From IMG/VR virus record IMGVR_UViG_3300032092_000008: a stretch of DNA of 56,447 bases. One strand, given 5' to 3'. Below are positions 1,052 through 50,930 of the stretch, one piece after another; position 1 is the stretch's first letter; every line of letters starts with the position of its first letter. This DNA comes from an uncultured virus (IMG/VR IMGVR_UViG_3300032092_000008). Its lineage: Duplodnaviria > Heunggongvirae > Uroviricota > Caudoviricetes. The notes beneath the pieces were generated by a model. It did not search any database, was not told where the DNA came from, and was given only the letters and a program-made list of their open reading frames with translations. Position numbers and translations under genes: made by a program.

Positions 1052-1657
1052 TTAAAACTCCATTATGATGTCTTGTATAATACGACTAATATTATCGTAT
1101 TTATTGTTTACCGTTCTATTAACGGACTCATTTACTGGTGATAGAAAAGCTCCATGCGTTGATGGATTACTAACAAAGTCAAATGCTATTAATTCAAAAT
1201 CATCTTGTACTTCAAGTGCTGCATTTCCTTCGCGCATTACTTCTTTTACAGATCCCATACCACGAGATGATATACCTAAACGAATTCCAGATTGGAATAA
1301 TGCTTTTAAAATATTACCAGATGGTGTCGGAAGTATTTCTACTTTACCAACCAAGTCATTACCTTGCCATCCCATTGATAATACATTATGAGATACATTG
1401 TTCAAATTGACAACAGATGAATCTGGGTGGTCTAATTCTCCTAACGCTCTACGCTCTGCAATAAATGTTTGACTATAATTTTTTGCTTCACGTTGTAATA
1501 TAGGCATTGGATAAATACGTCCATTTTGATTCTTTGCACCAGCTCTTTGAAGAACACCATTAACAATTAAACGGCCGTTATTTTCGGCTAAGGATTCATT
1601 TATTTGTTGCGGTGATACTTCAAAAATAGTATAATCAACCAAAAGCTGTTTACTCAT
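1052..1657 (-). CDS. Prohead core protease (T4 gp21-like)
   Basis: Motifs NQNGRIYP, ALGELDHP (catalytic His), TPSG, LGISSRGMGS (catalytic Ser), FDFVSNPSTHGAF. Confidence 0.95.
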   Translation of the reverse strand: MSKQLLVDYTIFEVSPQQINESLAENNGRLIVNGVLQRAGAKNQNGRIYPMPILQREAKNYSQTFIAERRALGELDHPDSSVVNLNNVSHNVLSMGWQGNDLVGKVEILPTPSGNILKALFQSGIRLGISSRGMGSVKEVMREGNAALEVQDDFELIAFDFVSNPSTHGAFLSPVNESVNRTVNNKYDNISRIIQDIIMEF

Positions 1658-4484: not shown

Positions 4485-6374
4485 TTATTCTATATCCAAT
4501 AAATTATTTTCATCTAACATTGTGCCAGTGTCTGATGATGTTTCTTCGGTAATTAATGATTGCTTGATTACTGATTTTGTTTTCATCTTGCTAGCCATGG
4601 TTTGTATCAATAACTTATTGTTAACACTTTCCATGCTTAATGGCGAGCCACCTTTGTAATTATGCTGTAATGGCGACTTATCAGTACTTAATGCATTTCC
4701 TAGATCTTTTATTGCCAATGGATCACGCCCAAATGGACTACTATGTTTACCCCATGTGCCAGTTTCTTTTGGACGACCAGGTCCTGCTACATGTTCTTGT
4801 TCCATACCGGGTAACAATCCACCTTTATTGGCAACATGCATACTTGCTATGTCATGAGGTGTACCAAAACTCATATTTGTTTTCTTTGGATCATTACCTT
4901 CTGACTTAATTTGTTCTCTACGGAAAGATTCTTTTAAATCTTCAATAACAAGATCACGTTCATTTAACCATTCCTCATGACTTAATCCAAATACATTTTC
5001 ATAGATATATTTTTCTGAAAACATGTTTAACTCTTTCATGTTGCCAGCCAATCCAACTTTTGCATCATATGATTCAATTTTTTGCTTTTCATAAATCAAT
5101 GATGGATTTGTTAATGATAACTGGAAATTAACTAGTTCATCATCACGGAAGCCTTGCGAATATAAATGTACTATGGCAATCTTTGTTAACTCAGAAATAA
5201 AAATTCTTTGTATACGTTCAATTGTTCTAGCAAAACGCACATCTTCGGCTGCTAATGTTGCTTTACCTTCTACACCTTCATCATATCCTAAAAATGCTTT
5301 TGGTATTTTAAGAGCAGCATGCATTTTATTACGTAGATACTCGATATCTTCAATTTGACCGTCACTCGATAAACCAGGAAGTGGATCAATTGATGTACCA
5401 GATTCTCCTCCACGTACTGGAAGATAAAAATCTTCCATCATGTTTTGAATATTAAACTTTAAGTTGTATTGACCAGTAGCCTCGTCCATATATGGAGTCT
5501 TTTTCATCTTATTGATGATTTGTTGCATGTACCCGTCGACTTCTTGTGGTGGTAAATTACCAACATCAATTTTAAAGATGCGGCGTTCCGGAGCTCTCAT
5601 TATACGATGAATTAACATGGCATCTTCCATCAATGTTAATTGCTTGAATATTTTACGTGCCGGCTCAATCATTGACTTACCATATGGTAAGAAATTTGTA
5701 TCTGATAATAAACGAAAATGTGCAATTTGATAATTTTCAAATTGATTTCTAGGATTACCAAAACTTCCGCCAAAATGACTAGTGGTGGTATGTGATCCTT
5801 GCACAACAAAACGATATGCATATGGATTTTCAGGATCGTATCCTTCTTCACGAACCATTTCATATGTTGACATGGGAACTACATTGATAACTCCTAACTC
5901 ATCTTCAATATCCAAATACAAATAGAAATCACCATATTTACAGGCATTACGAATCCATGGCCATAAATTATAATCTATGTTAAGTATGTCATAAAATAAA
6001 TTATGTAATACTTTACGTACTTCGTCATTAGGCGCTGAGATTGTTAATGTGTCGCCTTCTGCATCTTTAACTGTGCTTTCGTCTGCATAAATATCTAATG
6101 CCGATGCGATAATTGGATCCAAATCCATTGCTTCGTAATCAGAAAACAATTCAGTTTTTGATTGATGAAAGTTATAAGTTTGATTTGCAATATGTCCGGA
6201 TTGACCTCTATGTAGGCCAGCAAAACGATCAATGTAGTTATTACTAGAAAGTGCACCATTTGATAATAAATGGTTTGTATCTATAACTTTTAATCTATTT
6301 TTTGCTACACGACGAACAATAACATTTGTCGAAAAAAGCCGTTTTAATCTAGCTTGTAGTGAAGTATCTGCCAT
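4485..6374 (-). CDS. Portal vertex protein (T4 gp20-like)
   Basis: LMEDAMLIHRIMRAPERRIFKIDVGNLP, MMEDFYLPVRGG, LPG, DIEYLRNKM..ALKIP, EDVRF are gp20-type motifs. Confidence 0.96.
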   Translation of the reverse strand: MADTSLQARLKRLFSTNVIVRRVAKNRLKVIDTNHLLSNGALSSNNYIDRFAGLHRGQSGHIANQTYNFHQSKTELFSDYEAMDLDPIIASALDIYADESTVKDAEGDTLTISAPNDEVRKVLHNLFYDILNIDYNLWPWIRNACKYGDFYLYLDIEDELGVINVVPMSTYEMVREEGYDPENPYAYRFVVQGSHTTTSHFGGSFGNPRNQFENYQIAHFRLLSDTNFLPYGKSMIEPARKIFKQLTLMEDAMLIHRIMRAPERRIFKIDVGNLPPQEVDGYMQQIINKMKKTPYMDEATGQYNLKFNIQNMMEDFYLPVRGGESGTSIDPLPGLSSDGQIEDIEYLRNKMHAALKIPKAFLGYDEGVEGKATLAAEDVRFARTIERIQRIFISELTKIAIVHLYSQGFRDDELVNFQLSLTNPSLIYEKQKIESYDAKVGLAGNMKELNMFSEKYIYENVFGLSHEEWLNERDLVIEDLKESFRREQIKSEGNDPKKTNMSFGTPHDIASMHVANKGGLLPGMEQEHVAGPGRPKETGTWGKHSSPFGRDPLAIKDLGNALSTDKSPLQHNYKGGSPLSMESVNNKLLIQTMASKMKTKSVIKQSLITEETSSDTGTMLDENNLLDIE

Positions 6375-6389: not shown

Positions 6390-6397
6390 ATAAATAT
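6390..6397 (-). promoter_or_regulatory. Putative late promoter ATATTTAT (portal)
   Basis: Exact motif about 16 nt upstream of ATG 6374. Confidence 0.75.
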
Positions 6398-7977
6398 TAG
6401 ATTAACCAGGTAAGGCTCTCGTTTTGTCCGTTAACGCCCCATTGCCAGGAGCCATTATCCACATTACCTGTACTGTATACACCTGGACTACTCTTTCCAA
6501 AGTGTCCTAAGGTCTTACGAGACAAATCCATACCTTGTTGTTGTAAACGAAGTGCAGTATCACGTATCCATAAAGCTGTACCAAATGACATTACCAAGTC
6601 ATCATTATAACCACGTTGTGCTTCTGCTCTTTGGCCAGTCCATATGAATACTAATAACTCATCTATTAATCGTTTACTACGTACCACCGGAGTCTTTTCA
6701 CGGAAGTATGTTTCTAATTTAGATATTACCAAAGGACGTGTTTTGGAATTCATTGAGAACCCAGGAACTTTATCTGATTTACCTTTAAGGTCATATCCCT
6801 TTGCTAAATGTACATTTTCATCTACATATGCATCTGAACGATATGAATAATATAAGTTGTCATATCCTCTATCTATTGCAACTTGTAGTACTGCCCATCC
6901 TATATTAGCATTTTCAATTACTAGTAAAGCATTATTATATTCGGTGGCAACAGATACAAGCATGTTGCCGTAATCAGTAGTTCCTATTTTACCTTTGTAT
7001 TCCGCAACTTGTGTCATGCTATTAATTTCCATGACATGAAATGCGGAGTAGTCAGCTCCATCGCCTCGAGCAACGTCAGCTATAACCGCATAACTTTTAT
7101 TAGTTCCATACTCAGGATATTCCCATATCCAATAATTGCCATCGAAGCCTCGGCGTTCCATTGGCTCTTTAACATATGTTTGTTCATACCATTGCAATAT
7201 AGGACCGTCAATGACAGTATGGCCAGATGATATAAAGTCACAGTCACATTCTTGGGCTGCTTGTTTTTCTCCTAACAGTTCTGTTTGTTGTACACGCCAT
7301 TTATCATTACGATCAGGATGAACTGTCCAGTGTAGTTTCATCGGATGAAATTGACCACCCGCTTCCGCATCTGACCAAACTTTATGAAACCAATTACCAG
7401 TACCATTAGGAGTAGATAAAGCAATACATCCACCACCTGTAGCAAGTGTTTGCTGAGCTGACGTCCATATTTCATCAATGTTTCTAATAAATGCTGCTTC
7501 ATCTATGACCAATAATGATAATGCTTCTGAACGACCGGCAGTTCCTGTACTTGATACAGCTTTTACCTGAGAGCCATTCTTGAAGCGAAGTGAAAGTTTA
7601 TTATCTTCTATACTAGTTCCTTTTAACCAACTAGGAAGATTTTCGTGCATTACACGTATTTTTGTTACCAAGTTTTTTGCAACGTCTTGTGTTGTTGCAA
7701 TAACTAGTACGTTATAATCTGATTTAAACAACATGGCCCATAACACATAACCAGCTGTTACTGTTGATATACCCAACTGACGTGATTTTAATATAACACT
7801 ATATCGATTATGTTGTAAAGAAGTTAAAACCTCTTCCTGAAATGGATAGAGGTTAAAATACATTTTTCCTTTGGTAGGATGTTGTATAATACAATACTTG
7901 CGCATGAAATGTATTGGATCCATGGCGCATCGTTTATACTCTTCAGCAATTATTTCACGTAAACTTTTTTGAGCCAT
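6397..7977 (-). CDS. terL: Large terminase subunit (T4 gp17-like)
   Basis: Q motif LYPFQ, Walker A KSRQLGIST, Walker B LLVIDEAAF, STPNG coupling motif, nuclease ADVARGDGADYS and DDLVMS. Confidence 0.96.
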   Translation of the reverse strand: MAQKSLREIIAEEYKRCAMDPIHFMRKYCIIQHPTKGKMYFNLYPFQEEVLTSLQHNRYSVILKSRQLGISTVTAGYVLWAMLFKSDYNVLVIATTQDVAKNLVTKIRVMHENLPSWLKGTSIEDNKLSLRFKNGSQVKAVSSTGTAGRSEALSLLVIDEAAFIRNIDEIWTSAQQTLATGGGCIALSTPNGTGNWFHKVWSDAEAGGQFHPMKLHWTVHPDRNDKWRVQQTELLGEKQAAQECDCDFISSGHTVIDGPILQWYEQTYVKEPMERRGFDGNYWIWEYPEYGTNKSYAVIADVARGDGADYSAFHVMEINSMTQVAEYKGKIGTTDYGNMLVSVATEYNNALLVIENANIGWAVLQVAIDRGYDNLYYSYRSDAYVDENVHLAKGYDLKGKSDKVPGFSMNSKTRPLVISKLETYFREKTPVVRSKRLIDELLVFIWTGQRAEAQRGYNDDLVMSFGTALWIRDTALRLQQQGMDLSRKTLGHFGKSSPGVYSTGNVDNGSWQWGVNGQNESLTWLI

Positions 7978-8928: not shown

Positions 8929-9528
8929 TTATCCTTTAAGACTATTGTATATTTTTTCTTTTAGTTGTTTGTAATCAGTATCAAATTTTTCTAGAAAAGC
9001 TGTTTGATTCCAATCCTCTAAGCGTCCATCTGCGTTTTGTATGAATTGTAAATGTACTGCTTCGCGTAATAAGGCAACATCTCTGTCTGCATCTTTAAAC
9101 CAAGCTTCGGCATTTTGCAACATGCGTTCTTTATTATACGCATCCCAAGCTTCTTTACCTTGATTACGTATTTTAGACTCTTCTTTAATAACACATTCAA
9201 AACATTTTTTATGAATGAAATACATTTTAAAGTTTAAATGTTGTTCTGTGTCACGCATTGTTTTATCACAACATGGACATGCGTCTGGTACCGTTAATGC
9301 TTTACGTACTTGATCAAGTATACTATTTTCTACTTGTCGTGTACGATAACCATCGTGTTGCGTTATGCTCCAGGTTGTACCTTTGTTATCTGTTTCTGTC
9401 CAGGTATCACCTACAGCATGCTTTTCTGTAACTGTTTTATTAAAGCCATACGATTTTCTTGTCTGTGATTTATGAGTTCCAGACATCATTTCTTGTATGG
9501 CTTTGGTATTTTGTAACTTGTTTGACAT
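8929..9528 (-). CDS. Hypothetical Zn-finger protein
   Basis: CPCC ... CFEC cysteine pairs; 199 aa, near the terminase. Confidence 0.7.
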   Translation of the reverse strand: MSNKLQNTKAIQEMMSGTHKSQTRKSYGFNKTVTEKHAVGDTWTETDNKGTTWSITQHDGYRTRQVENSILDQVRKALTVPDACPCCDKTMRDTEQHLNFKMYFIHKKCFECVIKEESKIRNQGKEAWDAYNKERMLQNAEAWFKDADRDVALLREAVHLQFIQNADGRLEDWNQTAFLEKFDTDYKQLKEKIYNSLKG

Positions 9529-10092: not shown

Positions 10093-10100
10093 ATAAATAT
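10093..10100 (-). promoter_or_regulatory. Putative late promoter ATATTTAT
   Basis: About 18 nt upstream of ATG 10075. Confidence 0.75.
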
Positions 10101-11779
10101 CAACGGAATGATGATTCCAATCCTTTAACAATAAATCTACCAGTAATCTTAAATGGTTTACTATATATCTTTGGATCACGTATCACAATACCTTCATGTT
10201 CACGTACTGGACCTAATGGTGAACTCAATGCTTCGAGAACAGCATTACCTAGTTCCATTGTTGCTAAATACATCACAAATCCGTTAATAGCTTTTTCTAC
10301 ATCTGCAGGATCTGCTACTAATTCAGCCACATCCTTTTTATCAGCAATTGCCATTAATATTTGTTTGCTTTGAGCACCTACTTGTTTACCATCTGCTAAC
10401 TTAATAAATGTTTCTTTTTCATTTTTAGCATTTACCAACCATTGACTCAATGTTTTAGTTTGCTTAGCTCCATTAACAATAACAGTGTAACGTTTATTTA
10501 ACTCACCTTGGAAGTCTGGATCCGAATCCAATGTGGTAGGAACTGAACCTAATACTTCATAACCATTTTCATTTGCAGTTGGCGCCAAAGCATTTAATAA
10601 ATCTTGCAATGCTTTCTTATTATATGAAATTTCTTTGGTGGCACGACGCTTTGGAGTTACTTGTTCAATTTCCAACAATCCATGTATAGCTAAGAAGTTC
10701 TTGTTATATGATAGTACATTGGTACTACCTGCAACATATTCAATATTAAACATGACGTTTGGATTGTCCCACATTCCTAACTTCTTAAGGAATGGAGTAA
10801 TATCAGGTAATGCATCATTAAATATATCTAATACCTTACCGCCAATTATGATCATGCCATGGCCAGCGCCAAAACGATCTTCAAGGTCTGCTTTGGTGAT
10901 ACCTTTAACATCTAAAGGCTTATTTGAACCACGGTCCATCACAAACATTTTTTTACCGGCAACGTCTACTAAACGTATACTAGCATTTACTCCATCAATT
11001 TTAACAGAGGCCGGGCCTTTCTTTAGATATTCAGCTGATTGTGCAAATACTTTAACTAGGTCTTTTCCGGTCTTTACCCAATCAATATCAAATGGATGTG
11101 CCATATGGCCGCCAGCTCCACCTTCATTTATCAATGATTTCAATTTCATCATGTTCTCACTTAAGTTTTTTTTAACGATATCATATATTTTAGGATTATA
11201 CCATCCCATTATTTTTTCAAAGCTTTCGGGTGTACTATTTTTAAGAGCTTGTCGTATTGCTGTTCCAGACATTTCACCAAATCCAGGCACATCCAATGAT
11301 ACATGAGGTGCTACAATTAAATAGCCATGTTGGTCATATCCCATCATGTTATCTTTATTTGACTTGTAATCTTGGAAATAAGAATCTTTACCTGATTTCA
11401 ATTTACCAATACGGAATCTAGGATCTTCTCGCATATCTTTATCGCCGACCATAAATACCACTGCAGTTGTTGCCGGGTCAAACTTAGAGAGTAACTCCTC
11501 AGCCTTATAAGGATTCTTAACTTGTACTACATTGATAATACCGTACTGATTGATAATTGCTTTTTTCTCCTTAAATGAAAATGGAGATTTAGGCAGATCT
11601 ATTTTATCACTAGTGGCAACGTATGCATTTTGTTTACCAAATTGACTTTGTAACCAAGCAAAAGCTTTGGCATGGTGTTGACCAAATGGTTGAAATCGGC
11701 CTGGATATATAGCTACAATGCGTTTGATATTAGTATCTTCTGTAATAATTTGTTCTACTAGCCAATTACCTAAATTCAT
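10100..11779 (-). CDS. Fusion of a HIGH-family (cytidylyltransferase/NMNAT-like) nucleotidyltransferase and an RNA-ligase-like covalent nucleotidyltransferase domain
   Basis: N-domain YPGRFQPFGQHH and MSGTAIR; C-domain SVKIDGVN (KxDG motif I), FNIEYV, HEGIVIR (motif IV), PFKITG (motif V); linker LSENMMKLKSLINEGG. Confidence 0.75.
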   Translation of the reverse strand: MNLGNWLVEQIITEDTNIKRIVAIYPGRFQPFGQHHAKAFAWLQSQFGKQNAYVATSDKIDLPKSPFSFKEKKAIINQYGIINVVQVKNPYKAEELLSKFDPATTAVVFMVGDKDMREDPRFRIGKLKSGKDSYFQDYKSNKDNMMGYDQHGYLIVAPHVSLDVPGFGEMSGTAIRQALKNSTPESFEKIMGWYNPKIYDIVKKNLSENMMKLKSLINEGGAGGHMAHPFDIDWVKTGKDLVKVFAQSAEYLKKGPASVKIDGVNASIRLVDVAGKKMFVMDRGSNKPLDVKGITKADLEDRFGAGHGMIIIGGKVLDIFNDALPDITPFLKKLGMWDNPNVMFNIEYVAGSTNVLSYNKNFLAIHGLLEIEQVTPKRRATKEISYNKKALQDLLNALAPTANENGYEVLGSVPTTLDSDPDFQGELNKRYTVIVNGAKQTKTLSQWLVNAKNEKETFIKLADGKQVGAQSKQILMAIADKKDVAELVADPADVEKAINGFVMYLATMELGNAVLEALSSPLGPVREHEGIVIRDPKIYSKPFKITGRFIVKGLESSFR

Positions 11780-11797: not shown

Positions 11798-11805
11798 ATA
11801 AATAT
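11798..11805 (-). promoter_or_regulatory. Putative late promoter ATATTTAT
   Basis: About 19 nt upstream of ATG 11779. Confidence 0.75.
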
Positions 11806-14800
11806 TATGCTACTTGAGTTACTGTTACTATTATACTTGGAATAGCAGGTATGTTCCCCGAGGCGGGGAATGCATCAATTTCAGCATTTCCTGCGCTAGT
11901 TTGCCATGCAATTTCCGCATAATCAGCATTTACAAACGCATATACCCAATTCCATGCCGCAACAGTTGTTATATTATTTGCTGCAGTTATTTGTGTTGCG
12001 GTATTTGCAATATTCTGACCGTTTTTCTTTAACCATATATACACATCATCTGCTCCGCTGATGTTATCTATTTGAGCTGAAAATTGTATATTGTATACTC
12101 CATCATTTGGAAATTGTATACGAGAGTTGTTTGTATACGTTATACCGTCAGCAACATCTACCGTAGTATATGTAAATGAAGCTGATACATTAACCCCTGG
12201 ATTTGCTATGCTAGATGTATTACTAAAAGCTCCATGATTAAACTGCTTATTGTTGTTCATTATTAATGAACCCGTAACTTCTAACGAACCTGTTACAATT
12301 ACACCGCGTTTATATGTATATCCAGAGAATGGCTGTATACTACCGCCAATACAATTCCAATCTGTTTGTGACGTACCAGGAAATACAGAAGCAAGTTGCA
12401 TTACAGCCCCGGCAGGTAATGTTACTACTGCAGGATTAGTTATAGTACCTTTTTCGATATTAAATATATCTAAAATTTGATTACCGGCTACATTATTTTC
12501 TATAACAATATCAACTCTAGCATTATTACCTAATTGAGGAAATGAAATTTTTCCTAGAGGGTATAGTAAATCACAATTAATTGTCACACGCCGTACTTGC
12601 TCTCCGCCATTGTTACCATCTAATCGTAACCAGTATGCAAATTGATTACTAAAAAGTACGCTATTGTAATCATATGTGTCAAAGTAGCTACTAGAATTAG
12701 CAGCTGTTATTACAACAGTTTTATCACGTATTATATTTGCCAACGCCACACCAGTAAACAATGCATTTGAAGCAGTAACATTACCTTGTGCAGTTAAATG
12801 AAAATTACTTGACGATATTTCTATATTACCGCTACTGCCTGACAGATATTGACTTGAACTGCCTAAAAAGAATGTTTCAGCTTTAACTATGAATATGCTA
12901 TTAGGATATGTACGATATTGTAAATAGTTATCTGCATCAGCAACCAGTTCTAAACCAACACCTCCATAGTTATCACCAGATTGTGGTAATACAGATCCAG
13001 ACCAAATCATCCATCCAGCCGCTCCACCTTTAGCCGGATCAGATGCTGATATAAATCCTTCATAACCTACTGATCTCATGAATCCAGAATTAGTACCGGC
13101 AATTTCCATACCACTACCAATCTGATCACTAATGAATATGGAACCTGTAATTAAGTTGTTTACGCCGTCAATGTATGTGTTATCACCATCAAAAATAGCA
13201 CCATATGCAATTGCTTCTGCATCAGCTTTATCTCCGCGGAAATTAAAAAACTGAAATTTGAATGTTAATGGCGTATTAAGATGTTCGGTAGGTATTCTTT
13301 TGTTAATGCGTACATAATTAGGAGAAAATCCGGTTTCCTTGTTTGCAAGTACTTGAATTTCTCCTAATATAAATGATCCACGACGAGTTACAAACTTAAG
13401 ATCAACCGGTCCATCCTCTTCCGCAATAAATCTAAATGTTACCGTTGCAACGGTACCGCCAATATTGGTAGTTTCATATGTACCAATTCTAGTACCCAAG
13501 CGACCATTGTCTTGAAAGTTTCCATTTAAAGTAGCATTGAAATTAGTTACTGGTTCAACATTACCAGTAGTTACACGTGTAAATGCTTCTTGTTTATTAA
13601 TGGCAGAACCAGATATATAAACATCAAGTCTAGGATTTGGTATATTGGTATTCGTTGTTGTAAAACTAGTTATATCAGGGTCCGTAGCTATATTAAACAA
13701 CACGATATATTCTGTTCCGGCATATAATTGTTGCTGGTATTGAGGTTTGATTGAGAATACAACAGCATCATTAGTTTGAAATGCAGTTGTAGTTGGAGTT
13801 ATTTTTGCGCCACCTATTAAGGTGTCAACATTATATGATATTGTAAATGGTGTTGCTGTTGAAATAGTTCCTAATGCAGAACCAGTCCAATATTGATTTA
13901 TTTCTGCTAAGTTTTCAAAAATACCAAAGTTTTCATAATAGGCACCAACTGTAACGTTAGTTTCCAATGACTGTGTATCAATTAATACATCTGCGCGTTC
14001 TAATATACTATCGCCTAAGTCTATGAAATCGCCAAACTGTCCACTGGGCTTAAACAATGTTTTTACACGATATACATCGCCGGTTGCTGGTTCGATATTT
14101 GATAATATGATATCAGCAAAGCTAGATGAATTTTCAGTTTGAATTGTTAATGTAGGTTGTATAAAACTGGCAGTGAAATTACTAGTAGGCTCTATTCTAT
14201 TAACAGTATATGTTTCATAACTTTGAGGAGATCTAGTACTAGTTGTAGTACCAGTAGTTTTCTTTAACTGTACTGAGAAACTACCTAATGTATCATATTC
14301 TAAATCTGCAAAACCAGCTATTTGTGCAATACGAGCTGTTGTACTGTTAATTACTTGTGTGATAGCAAATTCATACGAGCCACTTAAACTACGAGTACCA
14401 GATCCATAATCAAATGTCGTTTCATCAAACTGTTGACCCGGATATATTAAATTACTCTTACCTGCGGTTGATGATACTACTGATATTTGTGGGTTTACAA
14501 TTGTCATACGTCCATTTGTCATGCTAGCTAAGAAGAATGGTTGGGCTGTTGTAATAACAGAATAGCCATTAAGTGTTTGCAGTATAGGTGATATGGTAGT
14601 AGCGTTGGTCGTTGATGATAAAATTGTTTGTGTTCCGGTTGTGTTAAAATACTGTTTACCAAATGATGGCGTGCCAGGCGATGTACTACCTTGACCAATT
14701 TGTCCAACTGCTTCGGCTTGAGTTCCAGTTAATGTTGAAGAATTATTAAGAACTGCAGTTGCTGTTACGGTGGCAGCGTTTCCTGATGATGTTACTTGTG

Positions 14801-15363: not shown

Positions 15364-18300
15364 TTATAAATATGAGTAATTTATTTTAGAGTATCCGTTT
15401 TCTTTTTTAATCTCAACAAGCTTGTCTACTACATCGCGCATGGCATCAATATGAGATATACACATGATAAAACCAAATTGCGATTTTAGATAATCAAACA
15501 ACATGTACATGCTATTCAAATTATCAGAATCTAATACTCCAAAACCTTCATCAATAGCCAAGAAGTTAGGACGAGGTAGACTAGTAATATTAATTAATGA
15601 AGTACGTATTGCCAGTGATGCAATAAACTTTTCCATACCAGATGTTAATTCCAATGGCCAGTAATTGTCAGTATCATATACAATATAACCATGTATGTTT
15701 TTACCATCTGTATTCATTATCACAGTAAAGTCTACGATTTGAGTTAAGATATTGTTAATTTCTGATTCGATTTGAGGCAATGCTCGAGCAATTAACTGAT
15801 ATGGTACTCCATCACGTTTAACAGCCTGAAGATAATATTCATAACCTTTATATTGTACTTCTAGTTCTGCCAAACGTTCTATATCACGCAATGCATTTTG
15901 TTTTGCAGTTTCAGCAGCATGTTTTTTACCAGAGTATTCTAATATACGAGTATCAATTTGTTTTAACTCAGTTGTTAATTGACTCATCTCTTCTTGCAAT
16001 TCTAATATTTCTGATTCTAATTGTTTATTAGATTCAATATCAGATATACGATCCTCAGCTGTTTTAATTAATTCAGCCAAACGAGTAATTTTATCTTTAT
16101 GTGATTGTGCTGTTAACATCACACCATTTAATTTATTTGTCAACCCAGATAACTTTTGCTCCTCAGAATGTAAACGTTGTTCAGCAGTTTGATAACCAGT
16201 TAGTAAATCACTTGCACTTACTTCTGGAAAATTTACTTTAATATCAGCAATAGCAATTAATACGTTATCATAATCTTCTTGTAATAATGGTAATTTTTCC
16301 GCTTCAACTTGTGTATCATGTAACCATGGATTTGCCATACAGAATTCACAATTTGGATCCCATTTATGATTATCTAATTTTTCAACCATTCGGGTAGCAT
16401 GTGATATTTGTTGTTTTAATAATTCTGTACGTGTAGTTAGTTCTGTTAATTGTTTTTTAGTTTGTTCTTCGGTAATAATATTACTACGTATATCTGTGAT
16501 ATCATACTGAGTAACATTACTCTTCCATGAATCAACAACGCTTTGTTGCAAATCAATATCATTTTTAATAGATACAGCATTTTGTTTAATGGTATCTAAT
16601 TCTGTTAACATGGCATGATATGATGCTTGTAACTGATCTGGATGTTTGATATTATCATCAATAGGACGTAATTGAGTTGAAAGTTCAATAATTTGTTTAT
16701 TGATATCTTCTTTCATTGTCTCCATTGATTCTTTTTCTGTTAGTAATTTATTGTAAACAACATATGTTTGCGTTATAGTCTGTTCTGCATCGGCAATGAT
16801 ACTACCTAAATCAGTACGCTTATATTCTCTAATCAATGCAGCTGTATCTTTACTATCATCAGCAGCAATTTGATATTGTTTTTCAAATACATTGATATCT
16901 AAAAACTGGCTTAGTAGATCTTTACGATCTTTTTGAGACATGTCGATAAAACCAGTATTGTTGTTTTGCAATGATAATGCAGTTAATACAAAATCTTCAT
17001 AGCCGCCTAAATACTGTTGTATAATTTTATTAGTGGAATCACGTTGATCGCCATTTAATGATGTCATGTTACCAGTATCATCTATATAATAAAATTCAAC
17101 ATCAACCTTAACATGGCCGTTACTTTGCTTTTTACCATTACGCTCGACTACATAAGTCTTATCTTCTAATTCAAATGTAAACTTACTAGCAAAGTTTGAA
17201 CTCTTATTATTAAGTACATGTACTGCTTTACTTGTGCGACTACATTTATCAAAACAACAAAATGCCAATGCATCAAATAATGTAGATTTACCAGATGCAT
17301 TTGGAGCAAACAATCCATAGCTACCATTTAAGCTAGCAAAATCTATATGGTTATCATCACCATAACTAAACATGTTACTAAATTCAAAGTACTTAGGTAT
17401 CCAAACAACATTACGAGTTAATTCTGAATCAGTTAATTTTGAAAATACAGTACGATTAATATGTCGAACTGTGTCTAACATTGTATCATCTAATGCAAAT
17501 TCATCTGTTAGATAATCTGTTATAACAGTATTCTGCCATTCAACGTCACGCACATTGCCAAATGAAATTTTCTTACCGGCTGTTACAGATGCTAATGGAT
17601 TAACTTTTTGAATTGTTACTTCTTGTACTTTGTATTGCTGTCTAATTTCAGAAACTAGTGTTTTCAATGTAGCTGAATCTGTATCTTTTACTTTGATACG
17701 AATTCTAGGCTTCTTTGGCATCGCAGTTGCTGGGTTAAGAATCTTACCATTATCAACATCAAATGTATAATATCCGTAATCATTTTCAATTTCAACAAAT
17801 TCACATTGTTTAGTTGCAAGATTCCAAACCATAATACCATGGTTCAAACCTTCACCAAAGTTTTGCTGTATTAAACTACCAGCATATGCTATAGTTTTAT
17901 CTGTATTTAAAAACTGAGGTTTATGAATATCTCCTAACAGTACTAAATCATGGCCATTGAACAATTCTGTGGTAACATGAGTATTACTCAATGTCATGCC
18001 CATGTCGGTTTGAGCCGAATTTACCGCTCCATGATGTAATGCAATTTTATATTCACCTTCAAAATCACTAGCTTTTATATAATTTACAGGCTTCTCAAAC
18101 ACCGACATTACGTTAAAGTGTACATTTGAAACCCAGTATATACCATTGTCTTTAAGATAGTGTATATTGGGATGATTCAAGGCTTTAACTATAGGTGTTA
18201 AGGCATCTAGACGATGCGAATTATTTAAGTTACAATCATGATTTCCAGTAATAATTAATGTAGGAGCAATATCAGCTAGATTTGCAAAAAAATCTGATAC

Positions 18301-18516
18301 TGTTTGCACTAGTTCTGGCGACATGTCTGTTTTAGCATGTACCACATCACCAGCTACATAAATTACACTACCATCAGTTTTATGTTTCTTAATGTATTTA
18401 TATAAGCGTTTAAATACTTGTTCATACTCAGTATGTCGTTTCACATTACGTACATGTACGTCTGCAATATGAAAAATCTTATCAATTGATTTTAATCCAA
18501 TGTCTATAGTGCGCAT
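15364..18516 (-). CDS. Single-chain Mre11/SbcD nuclease - Rad50/SbcC ATPase fusion (gp47-gp46 equivalent)
   Basis: Phosphoesterase motifs HIADVH, AGDVVH, GNHD, HHG, GDIH; Walker A APNASGKS; coiled coil with CEFC Zn hook; TSGMEK signature; AIDEGFGVLD; ISH. Confidence 0.93.
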   Translation of the reverse strand: MRTIDIGLKSIDKIFHIADVHVRNVKRHTEYEQVFKRLYKYIKKHKTDGSVIYVAGDVVHAKTDMSPELVQTVSDFFANLADIAPTLIITGNHDCNLNNSHRLDALTPIVKALNHPNIHYLKDNGIYWVSNVHFNVMSVFEKPVNYIKASDFEGEYKIALHHGAVNSAQTDMGMTLSNTHVTTELFNGHDLVLLGDIHKPQFLNTDKTIAYAGSLIQQNFGEGLNHGIMVWNLATKQCEFVEIENDYGYYTFDVDNGKILNPATAMPKKPRIRIKVKDTDSATLKTLVSEIRQQYKVQEVTIQKVNPLASVTAGKKISFGNVRDVEWQNTVITDYLTDEFALDDTMLDTVRHINRTVFSKLTDSELTRNVVWIPKYFEFSNMFSYGDDNHIDFASLNGSYGLFAPNASGKSTLFDALAFCCFDKCSRTSKAVHVLNNKSSNFASKFTFELEDKTYVVERNGKKQSNGHVKVDVEFYYIDDTGNMTSLNGDQRDSTNKIIQQYLGGYEDFVLTALSLQNNNTGFIDMSQKDRKDLLSQFLDINVFEKQYQIAADDSKDTAALIREYKRTDLGSIIADAEQTITQTYVVYNKLLTEKESMETMKEDINKQIIELSTQLRPIDDNIKHPDQLQASYHAMLTELDTIKQNAVSIKNDIDLQQSVVDSWKSNVTQYDITDIRSNIITEEQTKKQLTELTTRTELLKQQISHATRMVEKLDNHKWDPNCEFCMANPWLHDTQVEAEKLPLLQEDYDNVLIAIADIKVNFPEVSASDLLTGYQTAEQRLHSEEQKLSGLTNKLNGVMLTAQSHKDKITRLAELIKTAEDRISDIESNKQLESEILELQEEMSQLTTELKQIDTRILEYSGKKHAAETAKQNALRDIERLAELEVQYKGYEYYLQAVKRDGVPYQLIARALPQIESEINNILTQIVDFTVIMNTDGKNIHGYIVYDTDNYWPLELTSGMEKFIASLAIRTSLINITSLPRPNFLAIDEGFGVLDSDNLNSMYMLFDYLKSQFGFIMCISHIDAMRDVVDKLVEIKKENGYSKINYSYL
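15366..15373 (-). promoter_or_regulatory. Putative late promoter ATATTTAT
   Basis: About 19 nt upstream of ATG 15347. Confidence 0.75.
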
Positions 18517-38055: not shown

Positions 38056-38670
38056 TTAAATAATTTCGTCAATAATTCCATATTCTAGTAACTGTTCAGG
38101 CATTAAATACAAGTCATTCATTGTATTTGCCGCCCACCATTTTGCATCTTTTTTAGTTTTTGATGCTAATAAATCATTTACTTCTTGTTCTAATTTATTA
38201 AGATTTTTCAAATAACTATTCATATCCGAAGCTTTTCCGTAAATATCTGTTGAAGCCTGATGAAACATTACTGTTGATCGTTTACTAATCATTCTCGTTC
38301 CGGTACCGCATGCCAATATAACAGCGGCAGCACTCATTGCTCTACCACGACAAATAATATTAACTGGCACATCCAATGATTCAATATAATCAATAATACC
38401 AAACATTTCATATACATCACCTCCCGGTGAGTTCAATAATAAGTTGATAGGCGATTGATCAGTTTCTTCTCGGGTTGCCATTATTGCACGTACACGCATT
38501 ATGAAACTCATTAATGTCGTGTTGTTAATTTCTCCCTCAATAAACACAACAGAATTTAGAATATCTACTCGATTGGTTAATTGATTTGAAATTTCAGCAT
38601 ATATATCTGGTAGCTGATCTGTTACTATATTTGTAACTGGGGTGTTGTTGTTTTCTCCGTATATACTCAT
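38056..38670 (-). CDS. clpP: ClpP-family serine protease subunit
   Basis: NSPGGDV, AMSAAA (Ser), MFHQ (His), D.YL.PE..EYGIIDEI (Asp). Confidence 0.92.
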   Translation of the reverse strand: MSIYGENNNTPVTNIVTDQLPDIYAEISNQLTNRVDILNSVVFIEGEINNTTLMSFIMRVRAIMATREETDQSPINLLLNSPGGDVYEMFGIIDYIESLDVPVNIICRGRAMSAAAVILACGTGTRMISKRSTVMFHQASTDIYGKASDMNSYLKNLNKLEQEVNDLLASKTKKDAKWWAANTMNDLYLMPEQLLEYGIIDEII

Positions 38671-40211: not shown

Positions 40212-40381
40212 TAAGATATTGTGACACGTTCATGTACGAATTTGACTCTGTTTCTAATTTCACGTAAACGACGTACCGCTTCATTGGTATCAACTGCCTT
40301 CTTTTGGGCTAGTTCGATTAAGATTCGTAGCATATCTTCTGCTTCATCTAAACGACGTAACACATTGTCTTTGTCTCTCAT
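40211..40381 (-). CDS. Small helical protein (56 aa, absent from the ORF track)
   Basis: MRDKDNVLRRLDEAEDMLRILIELAQKKAVDTNEAVRRLREIRNRVKFVHERVTIS; ATGA and TAATG overlaps at both ends; AAGGAG upstream. Confidence 0.8.
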   Translation of the reverse strand: MRDKDNVLRRLDEAEDMLRILIELAQKKAVDTNEAVRRLREIRNRVKFVHERVTIS

Positions 40382-41436
40382 AATAACTCCTTTTCTTTAG
40401 TATATATATTTAACTCCGGCATATATTGATAATTTAACAATGCTAACTCCTTAGCCTTAGCCTCTACCATAATGTCTAAGTTATGTCCGTAAGTATTGAT
40501 AGGCAACTTGATATAGTCAGAATGGGCCTGCTCTTTGATCTTATCAAACTCTCGTTTCATCTTGGCGAAGGTTGGAAAAGCTGCTAAATCTTCTAATGTC
40601 ATATTATTGTTCTTGCACATGGTCTCCATCATGAGTTGATACTCTTCGCGGCGAGACTCGCTCCAATGGCAAGCTTGACGAATATGACTAGGCCATGTAG
40701 TAGCAGCTAACTCTAACGCCTCTTGCTCGGATAAACCGCTAGTATGAAACTTATGATGATAATAATCAAAGGTAATAGGAATTTGAACGTTACGATAAAT
40801 AAGATTGTATAACATCTCCACACTATACAAACTAGCTTTGTCATCATTCTCAAGTACTAACCGAGCCTTAAGATTATCAGACAAACGATCATAATTTTTA
40901 AGCCAACGATAAGCAGTAGTCTCAGGATCGTTATATGCCGCACCAATATGAATATTGATCTTGTTCTCAAACGAAGGCTCGAAGCCCATAAGATCAAATA
41001 ACTCGGAATGACGCTCAAGACCAATAATACTACGCTCGACTACCTCGTCACGCGTACTACCTAAAATATGAAACGGACCAGGATGGGTAGTTAAGCGATG
41101 ACCATGAGCCTTGGCATAATCACCAGCGGCTTTGAGATGCGCTGATAACTGTTCGTATTGAGGCAATTGCTCGAGCTCAAAATGATCATGCCATGGAACT
41201 AACTCAGAACCGACTCGAAATAAACGAATGCCATGCTCTTCGTTCCACTTAAGATAAGTAAGCAAGTCTTTGGCATTCTCTACAGCGATAGCGCCAATCT
41301 TATGTAAGTCAAAAGTACCATGCCAAGAATCTTTACGTAAGGTGCGGCTAGTAGTAACACGACCACCTAATTTTTTTGGACGGCTAGTTAATGTCTGATT
41401 GACACAGGCATAACCAAGCCTAACTGTATTTGTCAT
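40378..41436 (-). CDS. uvsE: UV damage endonuclease (UVDE/UvsE)
   Basis: LGYAC, GIRLFRVGS, RLTTHPG, HIG, LENDD, FDYYHH, HWSE, AHSDYI, DIMVEAKAKE. Confidence 0.95.
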   Translation of the reverse strand: MTNTVRLGYACVNQTLTSRPKKLGGRVTTSRTLRKDSWHGTFDLHKIGAIAVENAKDLLTYLKWNEEHGIRLFRVGSELVPWHDHFELEQLPQYEQLSAHLKAAGDYAKAHGHRLTTHPGPFHILGSTRDEVVERSIIGLERHSELFDLMGFEPSFENKINIHIGAAYNDPETTAYRWLKNYDRLSDNLKARLVLENDDKASLYSVEMLYNLIYRNVQIPITFDYYHHKFHTSGLSEQEALELAATTWPSHIRQACHWSESRREEYQLMMETMCKNNNMTLEDLAAFPTFAKMKREFDKIKEQAHSDYIKLPINTYGHNLDIMVEAKAKELALLNYQYMPELNIYTKEKELL

Positions 41437-44280: not shown

Positions 44281-44670
44281 TTATTTTTGAGGTGGTATTG
44301 GTGTCGTACGGCGACCGCCTTTTGTACGAATATCTTCTAACTGGTCTGCTACTTCTTGTTCTGCCTTAATAAACTTGGTAATCATTCCATTATCACCAAA
44401 CAATTCCAATATTGCTTTGTAGTCATCATATGGAGTTTCTTTACCAACAGCTTCTTGTGCTGATTTAGTAGCGGTTGCTAAACGACGAGCAATTTCTCGA
44501 CGAAGTGATGAACGTGACATTGCACCATAACCAGTAATATGTACCTCAGGATCTACCGGATCAAACTCTTTTGCATTAAGCAAAGAACCATAACGACCTT
44601 CCTCGTTAATTGCATTTAATTCTTCAATAATCAATGCTCTTAATTTATTTTTAAAATCTTTATGTTCCAT
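44281..44670 (-). CDS. Putative internal head protein
   Basis: Leader KNKLRALIIEELNAINEEG; AAGGA upstream. Confidence 0.65.
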   Translation of the reverse strand: MEHKDFKNKLRALIIEELNAINEEGRYGSLLNAKEFDPVDPEVHITGYGAMSRSSLRREIARRLATATKSAQEAVGKETPYDDYKAILELFGDNGMITKFIKAEQEVADQLEDIRTKGGRRTTPIPPQK

Positions 44671-46376: not shown

Positions 46377-46619
46377 TTATGAATTTTCGTTGTTATTATT
46401 TCTACCAGCAAATTTATCTAATGATGTTGCACCTATGCATACACAAACAATGACTTCAACAGCAGAAACTAGTTCTGACGATGGTTTGATTGATTCGTGA
46501 GAATAGGAGTTTGCTAACATGGTGATACATAAAAACATTGTACCTATAATAGCTAAAATACGTTTTGTTGACTGTTGTCCGGATTCGTCTTGTAATAAAG
46601 ATTTAAAAAATGCTTTCAT
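46377..46619 (-). CDS. Two-TM small membrane protein, holin-like
   Basis: LLQDESGQQSTKR, two TM helices and a polar tail. Confidence 0.55.
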   Translation of the reverse strand: MKAFFKSLLQDESGQQSTKRILAIIGTMFLCITMLANSYSHESIKPSSELVSAVEVIVCVCIGATSLDKFAGRNNNNENS

Positions 46620-46885
46620 TACTTTCCTTTGTTTAATTCATTCATTAAGAAATCAAACACCTGGTCCATATTTTCCTTGGCCACAGTGATATGATCTTCG
46701 GCCCAACTATGACCGTTTTGTAAAACCATTTCTATAACCTGTGGATCGATTTGTAATAGTATATCGATTTGTCTTCTCATCTGCTCAAGATTACTAAAGA
46801 ACATGTAGTTTTCAGTCTCAGTGTGGCCTTCATTTACCTTTGGTAACAGAGAAGATAGTTTTATGTTTTTAGTATGTTTTTGCAT
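46619..46885 (-). CDS. Putative internal head protein
   Basis: IKLSSLLPKVNEG leader; YMFFSNL..WAEDHI; ATATTTAT motif upstream. Confidence 0.7.
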   Translation of the reverse strand: MQKHTKNIKLSSLLPKVNEGHTETENYMFFSNLEQMRRQIDILLQIDPQVIEMVLQNGHSWAEDHITVAKENMDQVFDFLMNELNKGK

Positions 46886-46899
46886 GGAGTTCCTTTAAA

Positions 46900-46907
46900 A
46901 TAAATAT
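46900..46907 (-). promoter_or_regulatory. Putative late promoter ATATTTAT
   Basis: About 15 nt upstream of ATG 46885. Confidence 0.75.
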
Positions 46908-47554
46908 TACGGCTTATAGCTATTAGTATCTCGTACCAATTCAAAATAATCATTATCACTACCAGCATCAATTGTCATTTTAAATGGAAGCTTACTTAGA
47001 TTTTTTTGTAAGAATGCTTTATATAAACGACCTCGACGACTATCTAATTGAGGACCGGCTTCTATATCTGATTTAGGTACTATATACAATTTGTAAATCA
47101 CACATGTATATTCATTACCGCCAGAAACTTCTACCTTTAACCCTTCCACACGTTTAACGTAATCTTCGATACATTCCATTACCGTGGCCATTAAACGATA
47201 TTGTTCATTGAGATTAGTTTCTGGCATTTCATTACTAGCATCATTCACTGTACCAAATGATATATTTGCTTCAACTAATACATGATCAAGTGCTGTCCAC
47301 GGCGTTTCTGGAGCTCCGGGGTTTTTTAAACGCATTGTACGTTTAATAACTGTTAGAAATGATATGTTGTAAAGAACCTGTCCCTGTGCTAAATAAGTTA
47401 CTTTGAATTGTGTTTCATGATTACCACTACCAAATGGATACAGTGTTTTAGCATTAAGTTTAATCTTCTGATCAGCTTTATCTACGGCACGCCAACTAAA
47501 TGGTTTAGCGGTACCTTCACCAATCTCTTTTAATATTTCTGTCAGCTTTATCAT
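46907..47554 (-). CDS. Putative head-packaged protein (possibly a divergent GNAT-like fold)
   Basis: Leader MIKLTEILKEIGEG; ATV..I and SRRGRLY motifs; fold call is tentative. Confidence 0.55.
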   Translation of the reverse strand: MIKLTEILKEIGEGTAKPFSWRAVDKADQKIKLNAKTLYPFGSGNHETQFKVTYLAQGQVLYNISFLTVIKRTMRLKNPGAPETPWTALDHVLVEANISFGTVNDASNEMPETNLNEQYRLMATVMECIEDYVKRVEGLKVEVSGGNEYTCVIYKLYIVPKSDIEAGPQLDSRRGRLYKAFLQKNLSKLPFKMTIDAGSDNDYFELVRDTNSYKP

Positions 47555-48093
47555 ACTTTTGGAATACCTACTAATACTTTAGTTTTAACTGGACCACTGG
47601 TAAGTCGTCTATCGTAACTACCATCTGGGTTCATTGTAAGATCCTTGTTGATAACTTTACGAATTTCAACCTCATCCTTTATATGAGGAAGATTATATTT
47701 GGATGCCATATCTTTATCTATCTCAGCATAAAACCCTCGAGTCTTCATGAGATCAATTATTTTAGTTACAGCAGCTCTTTTAGCATCAGACCCACCATCT
47801 TGACCAATCGCAGTTATTTTTGTTCCAGCTGGAGTACGTTTACCTCCTACGGTAACATCTGGGTCTGCATCTGAGTCGACGTCGTTTGTTATCCAGTAAT
47901 TGAGATCAGAATTACGTATATCATTTCCAGACCGTAATTCATGATTACCACCTTTACCTGCATAGGCATTTATAATAAGATCGGCAATAATATCGGAATA
48001 GTCCTTTACGGCCGTCTGTGGAAGATTAATCCACTTATTCTTACCGAATTCATCAGCATATGCTTCTGAGATCAATGACTTTAGTTTTATCAT
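47551..48093 (-). CDS. Putative head-packaged protein
   Basis: Leader MIKLKSLISEA. Confidence 0.65.
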   Translation of the reverse strand: MIKLKSLISEAYADEFGKNKWINLPQTAVKDYSDIIADLIINAYAGKGGNHELRSGNDIRNSDLNYWITNDVDSDADPDVTVGGKRTPAGTKITAIGQDGGSDAKRAAVTKIIDLMKTRGFYAEIDKDMASKYNLPHIKDEVEIRKVINKDLTMNPDGSYDRRLTSGPVKTKVLVGIPKV

Positions 48094-49307: not shown

Positions 49308-49310
49308 ATG

Positions 49311-49580
49311 TTATTCCTGTGGCAATTCGTCTTCTGGTATAATTTCTTCATGCTCTTCAAATATCGGAGCAATGTCTTCTGGGTTATGTCCTAATGGCAA
49401 TGGTACCATTGGGATATTAGGACCCGGCTCACCAAAACATCCACCACCCGTGTTATCATCACTTGGACAACATTGTGTTGTATCTGTCGGATCTAAACAT
49501 GATTTACATGTACATGTATTCTTTGGGCCACACCCTGCGGCTACTAATACAATTGATAATATTGCAATTATTTTTTTCAT
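49311..49580 (-). CDS. Cys- and Pro-rich lipoprotein
   Basis: Signal MKKIIAILSIVLVAAG-C (lipobox); six further Cys; Pro/Glu-rich tail. Confidence 0.75.
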   Translation of the reverse strand: MKKIIAILSIVLVAAGCGPKNTCTCKSCLDPTDTTQCCPSDDNTGGGCFGEPGPNIPMVPLPLGHNPEDIAPIFEEHEEIIPEDELPQE

Positions 49581-49822
49581 TATGATATCTTTTTTAAATC
49601 CGATTCATGAAAATAGGCTAAACCTGATTTCATTCTAACCATGTAGTATTTACCAGAGGGTGCTTGGTCTTCAATAACACCAGTTTTATTATAGTCAGCT
49701 AGTTCAGGAGTCTTTACCTTAACCTTATCACCAACAGCAAATCCTTCTAGTATCGGAAACGCCTCATTGGTAATGTTGGCAATTTCCTCTCGGATAATTT
49801 TCTTTAGTTCTGATGCTTTCAT
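49580..49822 (-). CDS. Putative internal head protein with an SH3/KOW-like domain
   Basis: MKASELKKIIREEI leader; FAVGDKVKV..TGVI..YMVRM..FHESDL. Confidence 0.7.
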   Translation of the reverse strand: MKASELKKIIREEIANITNEAFPILEGFAVGDKVKVKTPELADYNKTGVIEDQAPSGKYYMVRMKSGLAYFHESDLKKIS

Positions 49823-49834
49823 ATTTTTACTTTA

Positions 49835-50203: not shown

Positions 50204-50209
50204 ACTACT

Positions 50210-50854
50210 TTACTTTTTAGGAGTAATAACGATCTCACCTTTAGCATTGGTAGTAATAGTGTAATTCTTATCAAAGCCAGGAGTATTAACTAATTTAATA
50301 ACATCTACACCTTGAGCCTTCTTTTTATTTGCAATATTTGCTACTGGACCAGTCGTCTTATTTTTACCCATTGCTGCTAAAACTTTATCAACTGCTTTTG
50401 CTAAACGGTTATAAGCTTTTGCAAAATTGTTCATAGATTCAAACTCTGCAAAACAAGTATCTAAATCGCTTAAAGCCTCTTCAAGTTCACTAAATACAGA
50501 GTTAAGTTTAGAATCCTCGATCTGATCAGCATTCTCAGCATTCATCCAGATAACTTGATCCGCTCCGTACTTGTCAGTCATTTTATCAAGAAACTTTCCA
50601 AACGAATCATAATCACCTGCCAAAGCTTTAGGAAGTTTCACAATAACATCAATAGTATCTTTAACTTCAGACATTGATTTAGGGCATACGGATTCGCCAT
50701 CTAATTCTGGAAATAATTTAGTATCTGTAATTATTTCAGCAACGGCCGTCATCTTTTTCGCGTCGATAGCAGTTACCGTTGTTGAAGGATATCGGTTGCT
50801 AGGTCCTTCTACAACAGCTTCACGTATCAAGTTTTTTAATTTCATTTTTTTCAT
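50210..50854 (-). CDS. Putative internal head protein
   Basis: Start moved to ATG 50854 (AAGGA upstream); MKKMKLKNLIREAVVEG leader. Confidence 0.7.
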   Translation of the reverse strand: MKKMKLKNLIREAVVEGPSNRYPSTTVTAIDAKKMTAVAEIITDTKLFPELDGESVCPKSMSEVKDTIDVIVKLPKALAGDYDSFGKFLDKMTDKYGADQVIWMNAENADQIEDSKLNSVFSELEEALSDLDTCFAEFESMNNFAKAYNRLAKAVDKVLAAMGKNKTTGPVANIANKKKAQGVDVIKLVNTPGFDKNYTITTNAKGEIVITPKK

Positions 50855-50930
50855 TTTTATCCTTTTTATATCAATTAACGAGCCGCGCAGCGGCAACGCC
50901 GCAATTACGATGCTCATGAACATCTTTTTA

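Follow-up and report, generated by a model that had tools for sequence, protein, structure and literature searches.

An open reading frame of 559 codons in a 56,447-nucleotide stretch of DNA from an uncultured virus (IMG/VR record IMGVR_UViG_3300032092_000008; hereafter the window) encodes an adenylyltransferase-like domain followed by a predicted bare core of the ligase-type, covalent nucleotidyltransferases, with a candidate cleavage site for a T4-type prohead protease between the two. The two folds, the conserved catalytic-type residues, the conserved protease motif and the strict pairing of the domains are direct observations. From these patterns it is probable that the protein is packaged, cut in the head and delivered with the phage DNA. 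That its two enzymes make up one pathway with a coupled dinucleotide route we propose only tentatively, and the explanation as a whole, in which architecture weighs more than chemistry, is the best we can offer and stands at about an even balance.

Genes assigned by Pfam and PHROG to a T4-type portal, an S77 prohead protease, terminase, baseplate, SbcCD and primase identify the window as part of a T4-like phage genome (Table 1), and the S77 protease recurs in four of five related records. Terminase lies close by in 21 of the 40 related loci that have at least 4.5 kb of downstream DNA. The gene for the 199-residue Cys-motif protein is found within 1.2 kb downstream at 66 of 80 loci, adjoins the corresponding gene in Microcystis phage Mel-JY01 and is missing from eight loci with at least 1.6 kb of flank. 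The AT-rich, promoter-like word in front of the ORF also occurs upstream of the portal and other head genes; it is not enriched over shuffles (seven found, 5.5 expected).

Table 1. Features of the window that bear on the 559-residue protein and its predicted processing
Feature	Position	Strand	Basis or remark
Adenylyltransferase-like + ligase-fold ORF, 559 aa	10100..11779	minus	Relatives with 93-100% identity have the same architecture
N-terminal leader, aa 1-14, ending IITE	11738..11779	minus	Motif scan; candidate head-targeting propeptide
HIGH-superfamily nucleotidyltransferase domain, aa 15-208	11156..11737	minus	Closest to NadM-type NMNAT, NadD, PPAT
GRFQPFGQHH, non-canonical HIGH motif, aa 27-36	11672..11701	minus	G27, P31, H36 invariant in 22 rows
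SGTAIR, KMSKS-equivalent, aa 171-176	11252..11269	minus	S171, R176 invariant in 22 rows
Linker LSENMMKLKSLINE, aa 206-219	11123..11164	minus	Predicted protease sites LSE208 and INE219 flank a vestigial leader
Minimal covalent-nucleotidyltransferase (ligase-fold) domain, aa 220-559	10103..11122	minus	AF2 model, VIA, conserved residues
KIDGVN, motif I, aa 260-265	10985..11002	minus	Lys260 is the predicted lysyl-NMP site
Prohead protease, gp21-type (Peptidase S77)	1052..1657	minus	PF03420 E 2e-26; PHROG 207; predicted processing enzyme
T4-type portal	4485-6374	minus	Pfam/PHROG; downstream of the 559-aa ORF, same strand
Terminase large subunit	6397-7977	minus	Pfam/PHROG; downstream of the 559-aa ORF, same strand
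199-aa Cys-motif protein	8929..9528	minus	Follows the 559-aa gene in the window's clade; not obligatory
AT-rich late-promoter-like word	11798..11806	minus	Upstream of the 559-aa gene; weak
180-aa protein with leader matching the ORF linker	47551..48093	minus	One of about 10 leader-bearing ORFs of the window

A sequence-only reading of the window had described the ORF as a nucleotidyltransferase fused to an RNA-ligase-like domain. Checking the translation confirmed every motif named there; the nucleotidyltransferase motifs are present, with the departures that the HIGH motif is GxHH rather than HxGH and that motif V has one lysine only. The same fusion, at 553-570 residues, is found on many other contigs, and near-identical copies of 553-559 residues show that it is not an assembly artefact.

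For the N-terminal half, a model of residues 1-209 built from 22 sequences (pLDDT 88.9) was compared with known structures. The best VIA match was 1f9a, a NadM-type NMNAT (Z 11.8, rmsd 2.9, 144 aligned residues), followed by NadM-Nudix (Z 11.4), NadD (11.2) and PPAT (11.0), with 19 chains at Z of 8 or more; Foldseek placed PPAT first (E 5e-6) and returned 99 matches at E of 0.001 or below, so that the nucleotidyltransferase fold claimed for this half was borne out by both methods. A profile search of the PDB gave NadM first (1f9a at 3.4e-8), and a weak second segment of that match paired SGTAIR with SGTEIR of 1f9a. The domain combines a Rossmann-like fold with the KMSKS-equivalent S(G/A)TxxR and carries GQHH in place of (H/T)xGH; among 96 motif-bearing representatives the HIGH motif is HxGH in 50, GxHH in 19 and TxGH in seven. 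Scores fell far below all curated family cut-offs (15 bits against 127 for the NadM family NF002243), and sequence searches of the PDB found no significant match for either half. The model thus points to an adenylyltransferase-like enzyme whose acceptor is not fixed by the tied matches to NMNAT, NadD and PPAT. The database name 'cytidylyltransferase' was the least supported and was dropped as the best name, since adenylyltransferases stood about 3 Z units above the cytidylyltransferases (Z of 8.3 or less). Leader residues 1-10 were modelled at pLDDT 49, and many relatives have no N-terminal leader, their chain opening with the first beta strand.

The C-terminal half belongs to no family of Pfam, PHROG or NCBIfam; PF09414 matched five of 28 members weakly (best E 0.004) and the window protein not at all. 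An AF2 model of residues 220-559, built from 28 sequences (pLDDT 91.6), found its best VIA match in T4 Rnl1 (Z 8.0, rmsd 3.7, 175 aligned residues), a Z score that equals the noise limit of VIA, and 26 of the first 27 rows were RNA ligases, DNA ligases or capping enzymes. The first four Foldseek rows were likewise ligases, yet at E of 6.6e-3 or worse. As single scores are modest, support for the ligase fold comes from the consistency of the hit lists together with the motifs; on the predicted model the nucleotidyltransferase core fold that the earlier assignment had called for was indeed found. A profile of the domain against the PDB gave HPr-like proteins at best (E 0.4), which we took as chance.

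Besides KIDGVN, the domain carries EY at residues 347-348, EGIVI at 529-533 and Lys544. These we take to be motifs I, III, IV and V after familiar patterns (KxDG and the like), labelled by position rather than by residue-level superposition. Across 149 rows (147 representatives, the window and Mel-JY01), K260 is kept in 148, D262 in 147, G263 in 148, E347 in 144, E529 and G530 in 146 each and K544 in 147, and the second position of motif V is Thr in 139, leaving its single Lys. Further conserved histidines are H225 (142 rows), H228 (144) and H366 (145); with H307 the range is 137-145. The chain ends 15 residues past Lys544, with one helix in the model; no OB domain follows motif V, the C-terminal domain specific to Rnl families is absent, and about 110-150 residues are inserted between motifs IIIa and IV. 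As modelled, the domain is a bare covalent nucleotidyltransferase core with a large insertion. It shares core fold and motifs I, III, IV and V with T4 Rnl1, Rnl2, archaeal Rnl3 and other covalent nucleotidyltransferases, and is unlike the ligases in consisting of the core only, with one motif V Lys, the insertion and an obligatory adenylyltransferase partner.

A profile search with the C-terminal domain collected 610 clusters (50% identity), and the analysis took in the best 150 of them. The adenylyltransferase stands in front of the domain in 40 of these and behind it in 60, giving 100 fusions in either order; 36 representatives are stand-alone, some of which may be fragments, and 14 have other arrangements. 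At the stand-alone loci L071 and L073-L078 the partner gene lies downstream in all seven. On a FastTree phylogeny of 137 rows, which left out 12 rows without clear architecture and whose branch support is rough, well-supported branches force at least six and at least five changes for the two fusion states. Variable modules occur between the two enzymes: a scan of all 84 representatives longer than 620 residues, and of selected others, found Tad3, DUF5661, DUF192, SET, GNAT, amidase and a protease-like domain. The Thoeris inhibitor Tad3, reported to act on the Thoeris sensor ThsB (PMC13728456, in excerpt), lies inside the same polyproteins in three representatives (E below 1e-22). A pair that stays constant in both orders while other cargo varies calls for a shared chemistry.

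Because the search profile began at Gly220, the junction motif in front of this residue was not selected by the search. Among the best 150 of the 610 clusters, the domain is preceded by [LIVM]xE in 99, by another Glu in one, by Cys in three and by other residues in four, and one is truncated; the remaining 42 have their initial Met at the domain edge or only a few positions from it, in two cases apparently through mis-called starts, and DNA of locus L082 has a true ATG start after the preceding stop. Where residues precede the domain (107 representatives), Glu occupies P1 in 100 and Leu, Ile or Val occupies P3 in 104, against a background of 1.6% per position. These representatives are less than 50% identical to each other, and the site is retained among relatives whose linkers range from about 10 to more than 700 residues. 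T4 gp21 is reported to cleave after L/I-X-E (PMC9026906, in excerpt); here an S77 protease is encoded in the genome and L/I-X-E stands at the domain edges, the pattern of gp21-processed cargo. Stand-alone relatives begin with a leader of 10-15 residues ending in Glu, and in the split operons L071 and L074-L077 each enzyme, the adenylyltransferase included, has its own short leader ending in Glu.

These junction motifs and split-gene leaders support the proposal of the sequence-only reading that two separately head-targeted genes fused and left a prohead-protease site at their junction. That reading had offered cleavage or an internal start as the means of separating the halves, and the counts favour the former: of the 120 closest relatives, 114 are fused proteins in which a long part lies upstream, and among these 111 have [LIVM]xE and 62 have a Met within 15 residues, and a second site lies no more than 25 residues away in 80. 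In reverse-order fusions [LIVM]xE occurs in the spacer in only 37 of 60. Cleavage is, on these patterns, better supported than an internal start, and the junction and leader counts argue for a fusion of head-targeted genes in which the site is selected and the internal Met dispensable. In the window protein the new N-terminus would likely be GGAGGHM.

The resemblance noticed earlier between the linker and the N-terminus of the 47551..48093 product holds, a 10-mer matching at 8/10 amino acids and 22/30 nucleotides; chance matches (200 shuffles, other window proteins, 17,411 residues) reached seven once and eight never. A second linker-like copy (7/10) stands near the start of 50210..50923. A relative of the 47551..48093 protein at L082 (32%, E 4e-21) has a different leader of the same type, and a pattern scan found a Glu-ending leader word within the first 25 residues of 10 of the 71 minus-strand ORFs of the window.

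Cys takes the place of Glu at P1 in ten proteins of the window's family. Nine of them carry an HNH-like insert upstream, and five retain an intact Glu-Gly-Gly copy before such an insert; a group I or group II intron as explanation of the inserts found no support, since Rfam gave no match at gathering thresholds in L036, L016 or the window. Among 120 relatives of the Mel-JY01 protein, out of 489 matches and with many near-copies, 47 have Cys at P1. The HNH insert is absent from 41 of these 47, the nearest site lying 8-46 residues upstream, and their Cys is apparently the scar of such an insert. Cys-junction alleles make it less likely that a free Gly220 amine is strictly needed and, together with DUF6267 leaders that end at variable distances, show that an exact new N-terminus after Glu is no family-wide requirement, unless Cys replaces its role. 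In the broader version of our reading given below, P1 admits Glu (followed by a cut), an initiator Met (which would be taken off) or Cys and nothing else, so that a free amine or a thiol by His225/His228 may complete a metal site, which would then be switched on by head maturation.

Mel-JY01 protein WWT39297, a 'cytidylyltransferase like protein', has the domain order and junction type of the window ORF (IAE before GG) and the same downstream neighbour, lies near terminase and prohead protease, and matches the window family with a profile probability of 99.6; it differs in having a longer insertion and is 28% identical in the ligase domain. Literature searches returned no paper under the name Mel-JY01. 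In cyanophages, T4-GC190 ('cytidylyltransferase/NMNAT') and T4-GC71 (DUF6267, PF19782) comprise the same two kinds of domain, adjacent in P-SSM4 and fused in S-PM2 relatives (591 residues), in the reverse of the window's order, and the DUF6267 form is present in 471 phage records. DUF6267 and the window's C-terminal domain share KxDG, EG and N-terminal HxxH motifs, the latter matches the S-PM2 protein in Foldseek (E 2.2e-4, TMq 0.44), and ESM features reach 0.96 between it and clusters with 23-24% DUF6267 members. PF19782 gave no match to the domain, our own profile scored the S-PM2 halves at E 0.13-0.15, and profile-profile comparison with 14 DUF rows gave at best E 0.0056 and probability 6.5. 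Filing the domain as DUF6267 was rejected on these profile tests, and from its resemblance in fold and language-model features and the common partner we provisionally treat it as a sister family.

Published virion proteomes bear indirectly on the packaging of such enzymes, and their results are mixed. The T4-GC190 adenylyltransferase is reported as detected in S-SM1 virions and undetected in those of S-PM2 (PMC3037559, in excerpt), and a cyanophage adenylyltransferase as detected in virions of S-SCSM1 (PMC9602691, in excerpt) and S-CREM2 (PMC10665884, in excerpt). The available parts of the respective papers name no NMNAT among 23 virion proteins of S-SCSM2R (PMC12801897) and give T4-GC71 no proteomic flag (PMC3037559). 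In S-CREM2, the available part of the report lists gp154, gp155, gp156 and gp160 as detected and gp157, gp158 and the DUF6267 gene product as undetected (PMC10665884); the four detected proteins bear leaders and the DUF6267 gene is leaderless. The S-PM2 fusion also lacks a leader and went undetected in its virion, and many cyanophage DUF6267 proteins have none and are not reported in virions. The S-CREM2 pattern agrees with the rule that a leader means packaging, yet the pair can exist without a packaged ligase half. Carry-over in CsCl virion preparations is warned of in two of these sources (PMC10665884 and PMC9602691, in excerpt).

In T4 itself, IPI-III and Alt are described as cargo bearing capsid-targeting sequences that gp21 cuts (PMC9026906, in excerpt). 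The window resembles this system in its short L/I-X-E leaders, S77 protease, T4-type portal and terminase, and enzyme cargo; unlike in T4, the site lies inside a multi-enzyme polyprotein whose modules are swapped among relatives, and processing here is predicted. Head cargo cut by gp21 and both folds were known already, and in the literature searched, outside which most subscription papers lay, neither this ligase-fold family nor its link to the virion adenylyltransferase nor polyproteins of this kind turned out to be described.

Our preferred reading is that two enzyme genes, both late and head-targeted, fused to give this gene. The fused protein would be recruited into the prohead, where the gp21-type protease would cut after Glu14, Glu208 and Glu219 and free a NadM-like adenylyltransferase and a minimal ligase-fold nucleotidyltransferase, both of which would enter the cell with the DNA. 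The first enzyme would build NAD+, or another dinucleotide of the A(5')pp-X kind, from ATP and a phosphorylated metabolite; the second, by lysyl-NMP chemistry at Lys260, would take the dinucleotide as donor. Its targets would be RNA or DNA ends that carry a phosphate or hydroxyl group, and it would act within minutes of the start of infection, probably to counter a host defence. Ligase chemistry offers two precedents, each of which could link an adenylyltransferase with a ligase core: in NAD-dependent ligases the lysine is charged from NAD+ and NMN is released, and T4 RNA ligase can use A(5')pp-X as donor, joining p-X to RNA 3' ends. A broader version, rather unlikely in its full form, is a widespread two-enzyme pathway of phages, carried in the head as a polyprotein that the protease splits and whose anti-defence cargo can be exchanged. 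In it the NMNAT-like enzyme would make and recycle A(5')pp-X, and the ligase fold would either use the dinucleotide as AMP donor or cap nucleic-acid ends with p-X. The former would amount to an NAD-ligase cycle whose NMN-binding part is provided in trans; in the latter p-X would be a protective cap.

If this reading is right, one of the hypothetical genes common among aquatic T4-like phages (610 clusters, 50% identity) encodes a ligase-fold enzyme, the 'cytidylyltransferase' long seen in cyanophage virions gains a partner and a testable reaction, and T4-type head processing serves to assemble polyproteins of several enzymes, in which the variable slots (Tad3, SET, GNAT, amidase, DUF192, DUF5661) could be mined for injected counter-defence proteins. 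Should the coupling hold, the pathway would be new. Mel-JY01 and S-PM2 are cultured phages, which makes tests feasible.

The two enzymes might instead, as the sequence-only reading had proposed, be packaged and cut but independent, an NMNAT rebuilding NAD+ and an ATP-dependent RNA ligase repairing cut tRNA, as the best match to NadM, the RNA ligases at the top of the C-domain list and the Tad3 co-cargo of some relatives would allow. Among known phage systems, NARP2 is reported to consist of Nampt and Nmnat and to require Nampt (bioRxiv 2024.02.11.579819, in excerpt), and NARP3 of PnuC and NadR (PMC13464706, in excerpt). The window ORF is like them in bringing an NMNAT-like fold, with a possible counter-defence role, into a phage, and unlike them and NadM in that the partner is a ligase fold rather than Nampt, Nudix or a nicotinamide-riboside kinase, and in its head-targeting sites. 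The Nampt/NAPRTase family (PF04095) was found in none of five related records, four of them complete, against 8 of 14 control genomes, so in these relatives the system is not NARP2; the 559-residue ORF holds no kinase domain of the NARP3/NadR type, and the words ligase, virion and cyanophage do not occur in the available part of the NARP3 paper (PMC13464706). No polynucleotide-kinase or RNA-ligase family was found among 105 of the 140 larger ORFs of the complete relative G003, and lack of the former weakens classical tRNA repair. Independence would also leave the constant pairing in both orders, amid variable cargo, unexplained, and we judge it unlikely.

Less probable again is a cytoplasmic bifunctional enzyme, or pair, of late infection, for which delivery would not be the function and the Glu sites would be relics or would clear the protein from proheads. 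The leaderless forms (the 42 of the best 150 that start at the domain, and the S-PM2 fusion), DUF6267 proteins unreported in virions and the persistence of Cys-junction alleles fit this account, but a relic would hardly hold P1 across variable linkers in 100 of 107 representatives so little alike, nor would split genes each retain a leader. We also think it very unlikely that the ligase fold serves as a protein or small-molecule nucleotidyltransferase, for AMPylation or dinucleoside polyphosphate synthesis, rather than as a nucleic-acid enzyme: the missing OB and C-terminal domains that bind nucleic acid, the large unique insertion, the extra conserved histidines and, by analogy, the phage nucleotidyltransferase Gad2, which inhibits Gabija, may point that way, against which all fold neighbours, ligases and capping enzymes alike, act on nucleic-acid ends. 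Least probable is separate translation of the ligase domain from Met210/211, an internal ATG at which the ancestral gene would have begun, with the protease trimming the leader only. The linker does hold two ATG codons in frame, with an intact leader behind them, and the stand-alone relative P0015 (86% identical) begins with such a leader; against this, Met is less frequent than [LIVM]xE among the fused relatives, and the ATG lacks the preceding AGGA word of many window genes. The internal-start and cleavage readings give the same mature product.

At the processing site, the predicted prohead-protease site ([LIVM]xE) directly before the ligase-fold domain, several relatives of the gene carry an in-frame insert, zinc-finger and HNH-like, whose length reaches about 290 aa. 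An intact Glu-Gly-Gly copy precedes this insert in five of ten cases, and in every case it ends in Leu-Leu-x-Cys, after which the ligase domain begins. The insert is found at three separate places of the tree, and it apparently leaves Cys scars where it has been lost. A search for a group I/II intron gave no Rfam match at gathering thresholds in L036, L016 (related loci) or the window. The insert is probably a homing endonuclease targeting the conserved processing site.

Three related proteins (P0142, P0160 and P0201) place Tad3 (E < 1e-22) and DUF5661 between the adenylyltransferase and ligase-fold enzymes, with Glu sites flanking this segment; their Tad3 is a candidate virion-delivered Thoeris inhibitor.

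Features at the junction, around the gene and elsewhere
Feature	Location	Remarks
Zinc-finger + HNH-like insert, in frame	L036:4555-7029	also L037, L035, L016; proteins P0077, P0092, P0107, P0123, P0126, P0160
Unnamed 199-aa protein, Cys motifs	window 8929-9528	downstream of gene
SbcD-like phosphoesterase + SbcC-like ATPase	window 15364-18516	single fused 1050-aa ORF
S-PM2 p138-p139	L084:3025-4804	
Small-ORF cluster, leaders of the gene's type	window 46619-50923, 44281-44670	starts 46907, 47551, 48090, 49580, 49835, 50210, 44281
Gene run with common leader	L082:71-7997	

Of 80 related loci, 66 have the Cys-motif protein within 1.2 kb downstream of the gene, and in Microcystis phage Mel-JY01 it adjoins the gene. 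The SbcD/SbcC-like ORF lies upstream in 30 of the 44 loci whose upstream sequence spans at least 3 kb. For S-PM2 p138-p139, the AJ630128 annotation gives two genes; relatives (86-96% identity) have a single 591-aa ORF comprising DUF6267 and the adenylyltransferase.

The leader-bearing small ORFs are likely to represent further head cargo. ORF 46907..47554 weakly matches DUF6934, and 47551..48093 has a relative in locus L082, where the two enzymes, in reverse order and without a leader, follow the leader-sharing run, which includes protein kinase-like and DUF2608-like genes. The window also encodes a ClpP-like protease (38056-38670) and a UvdE UV-damage endonuclease (40378-41436).
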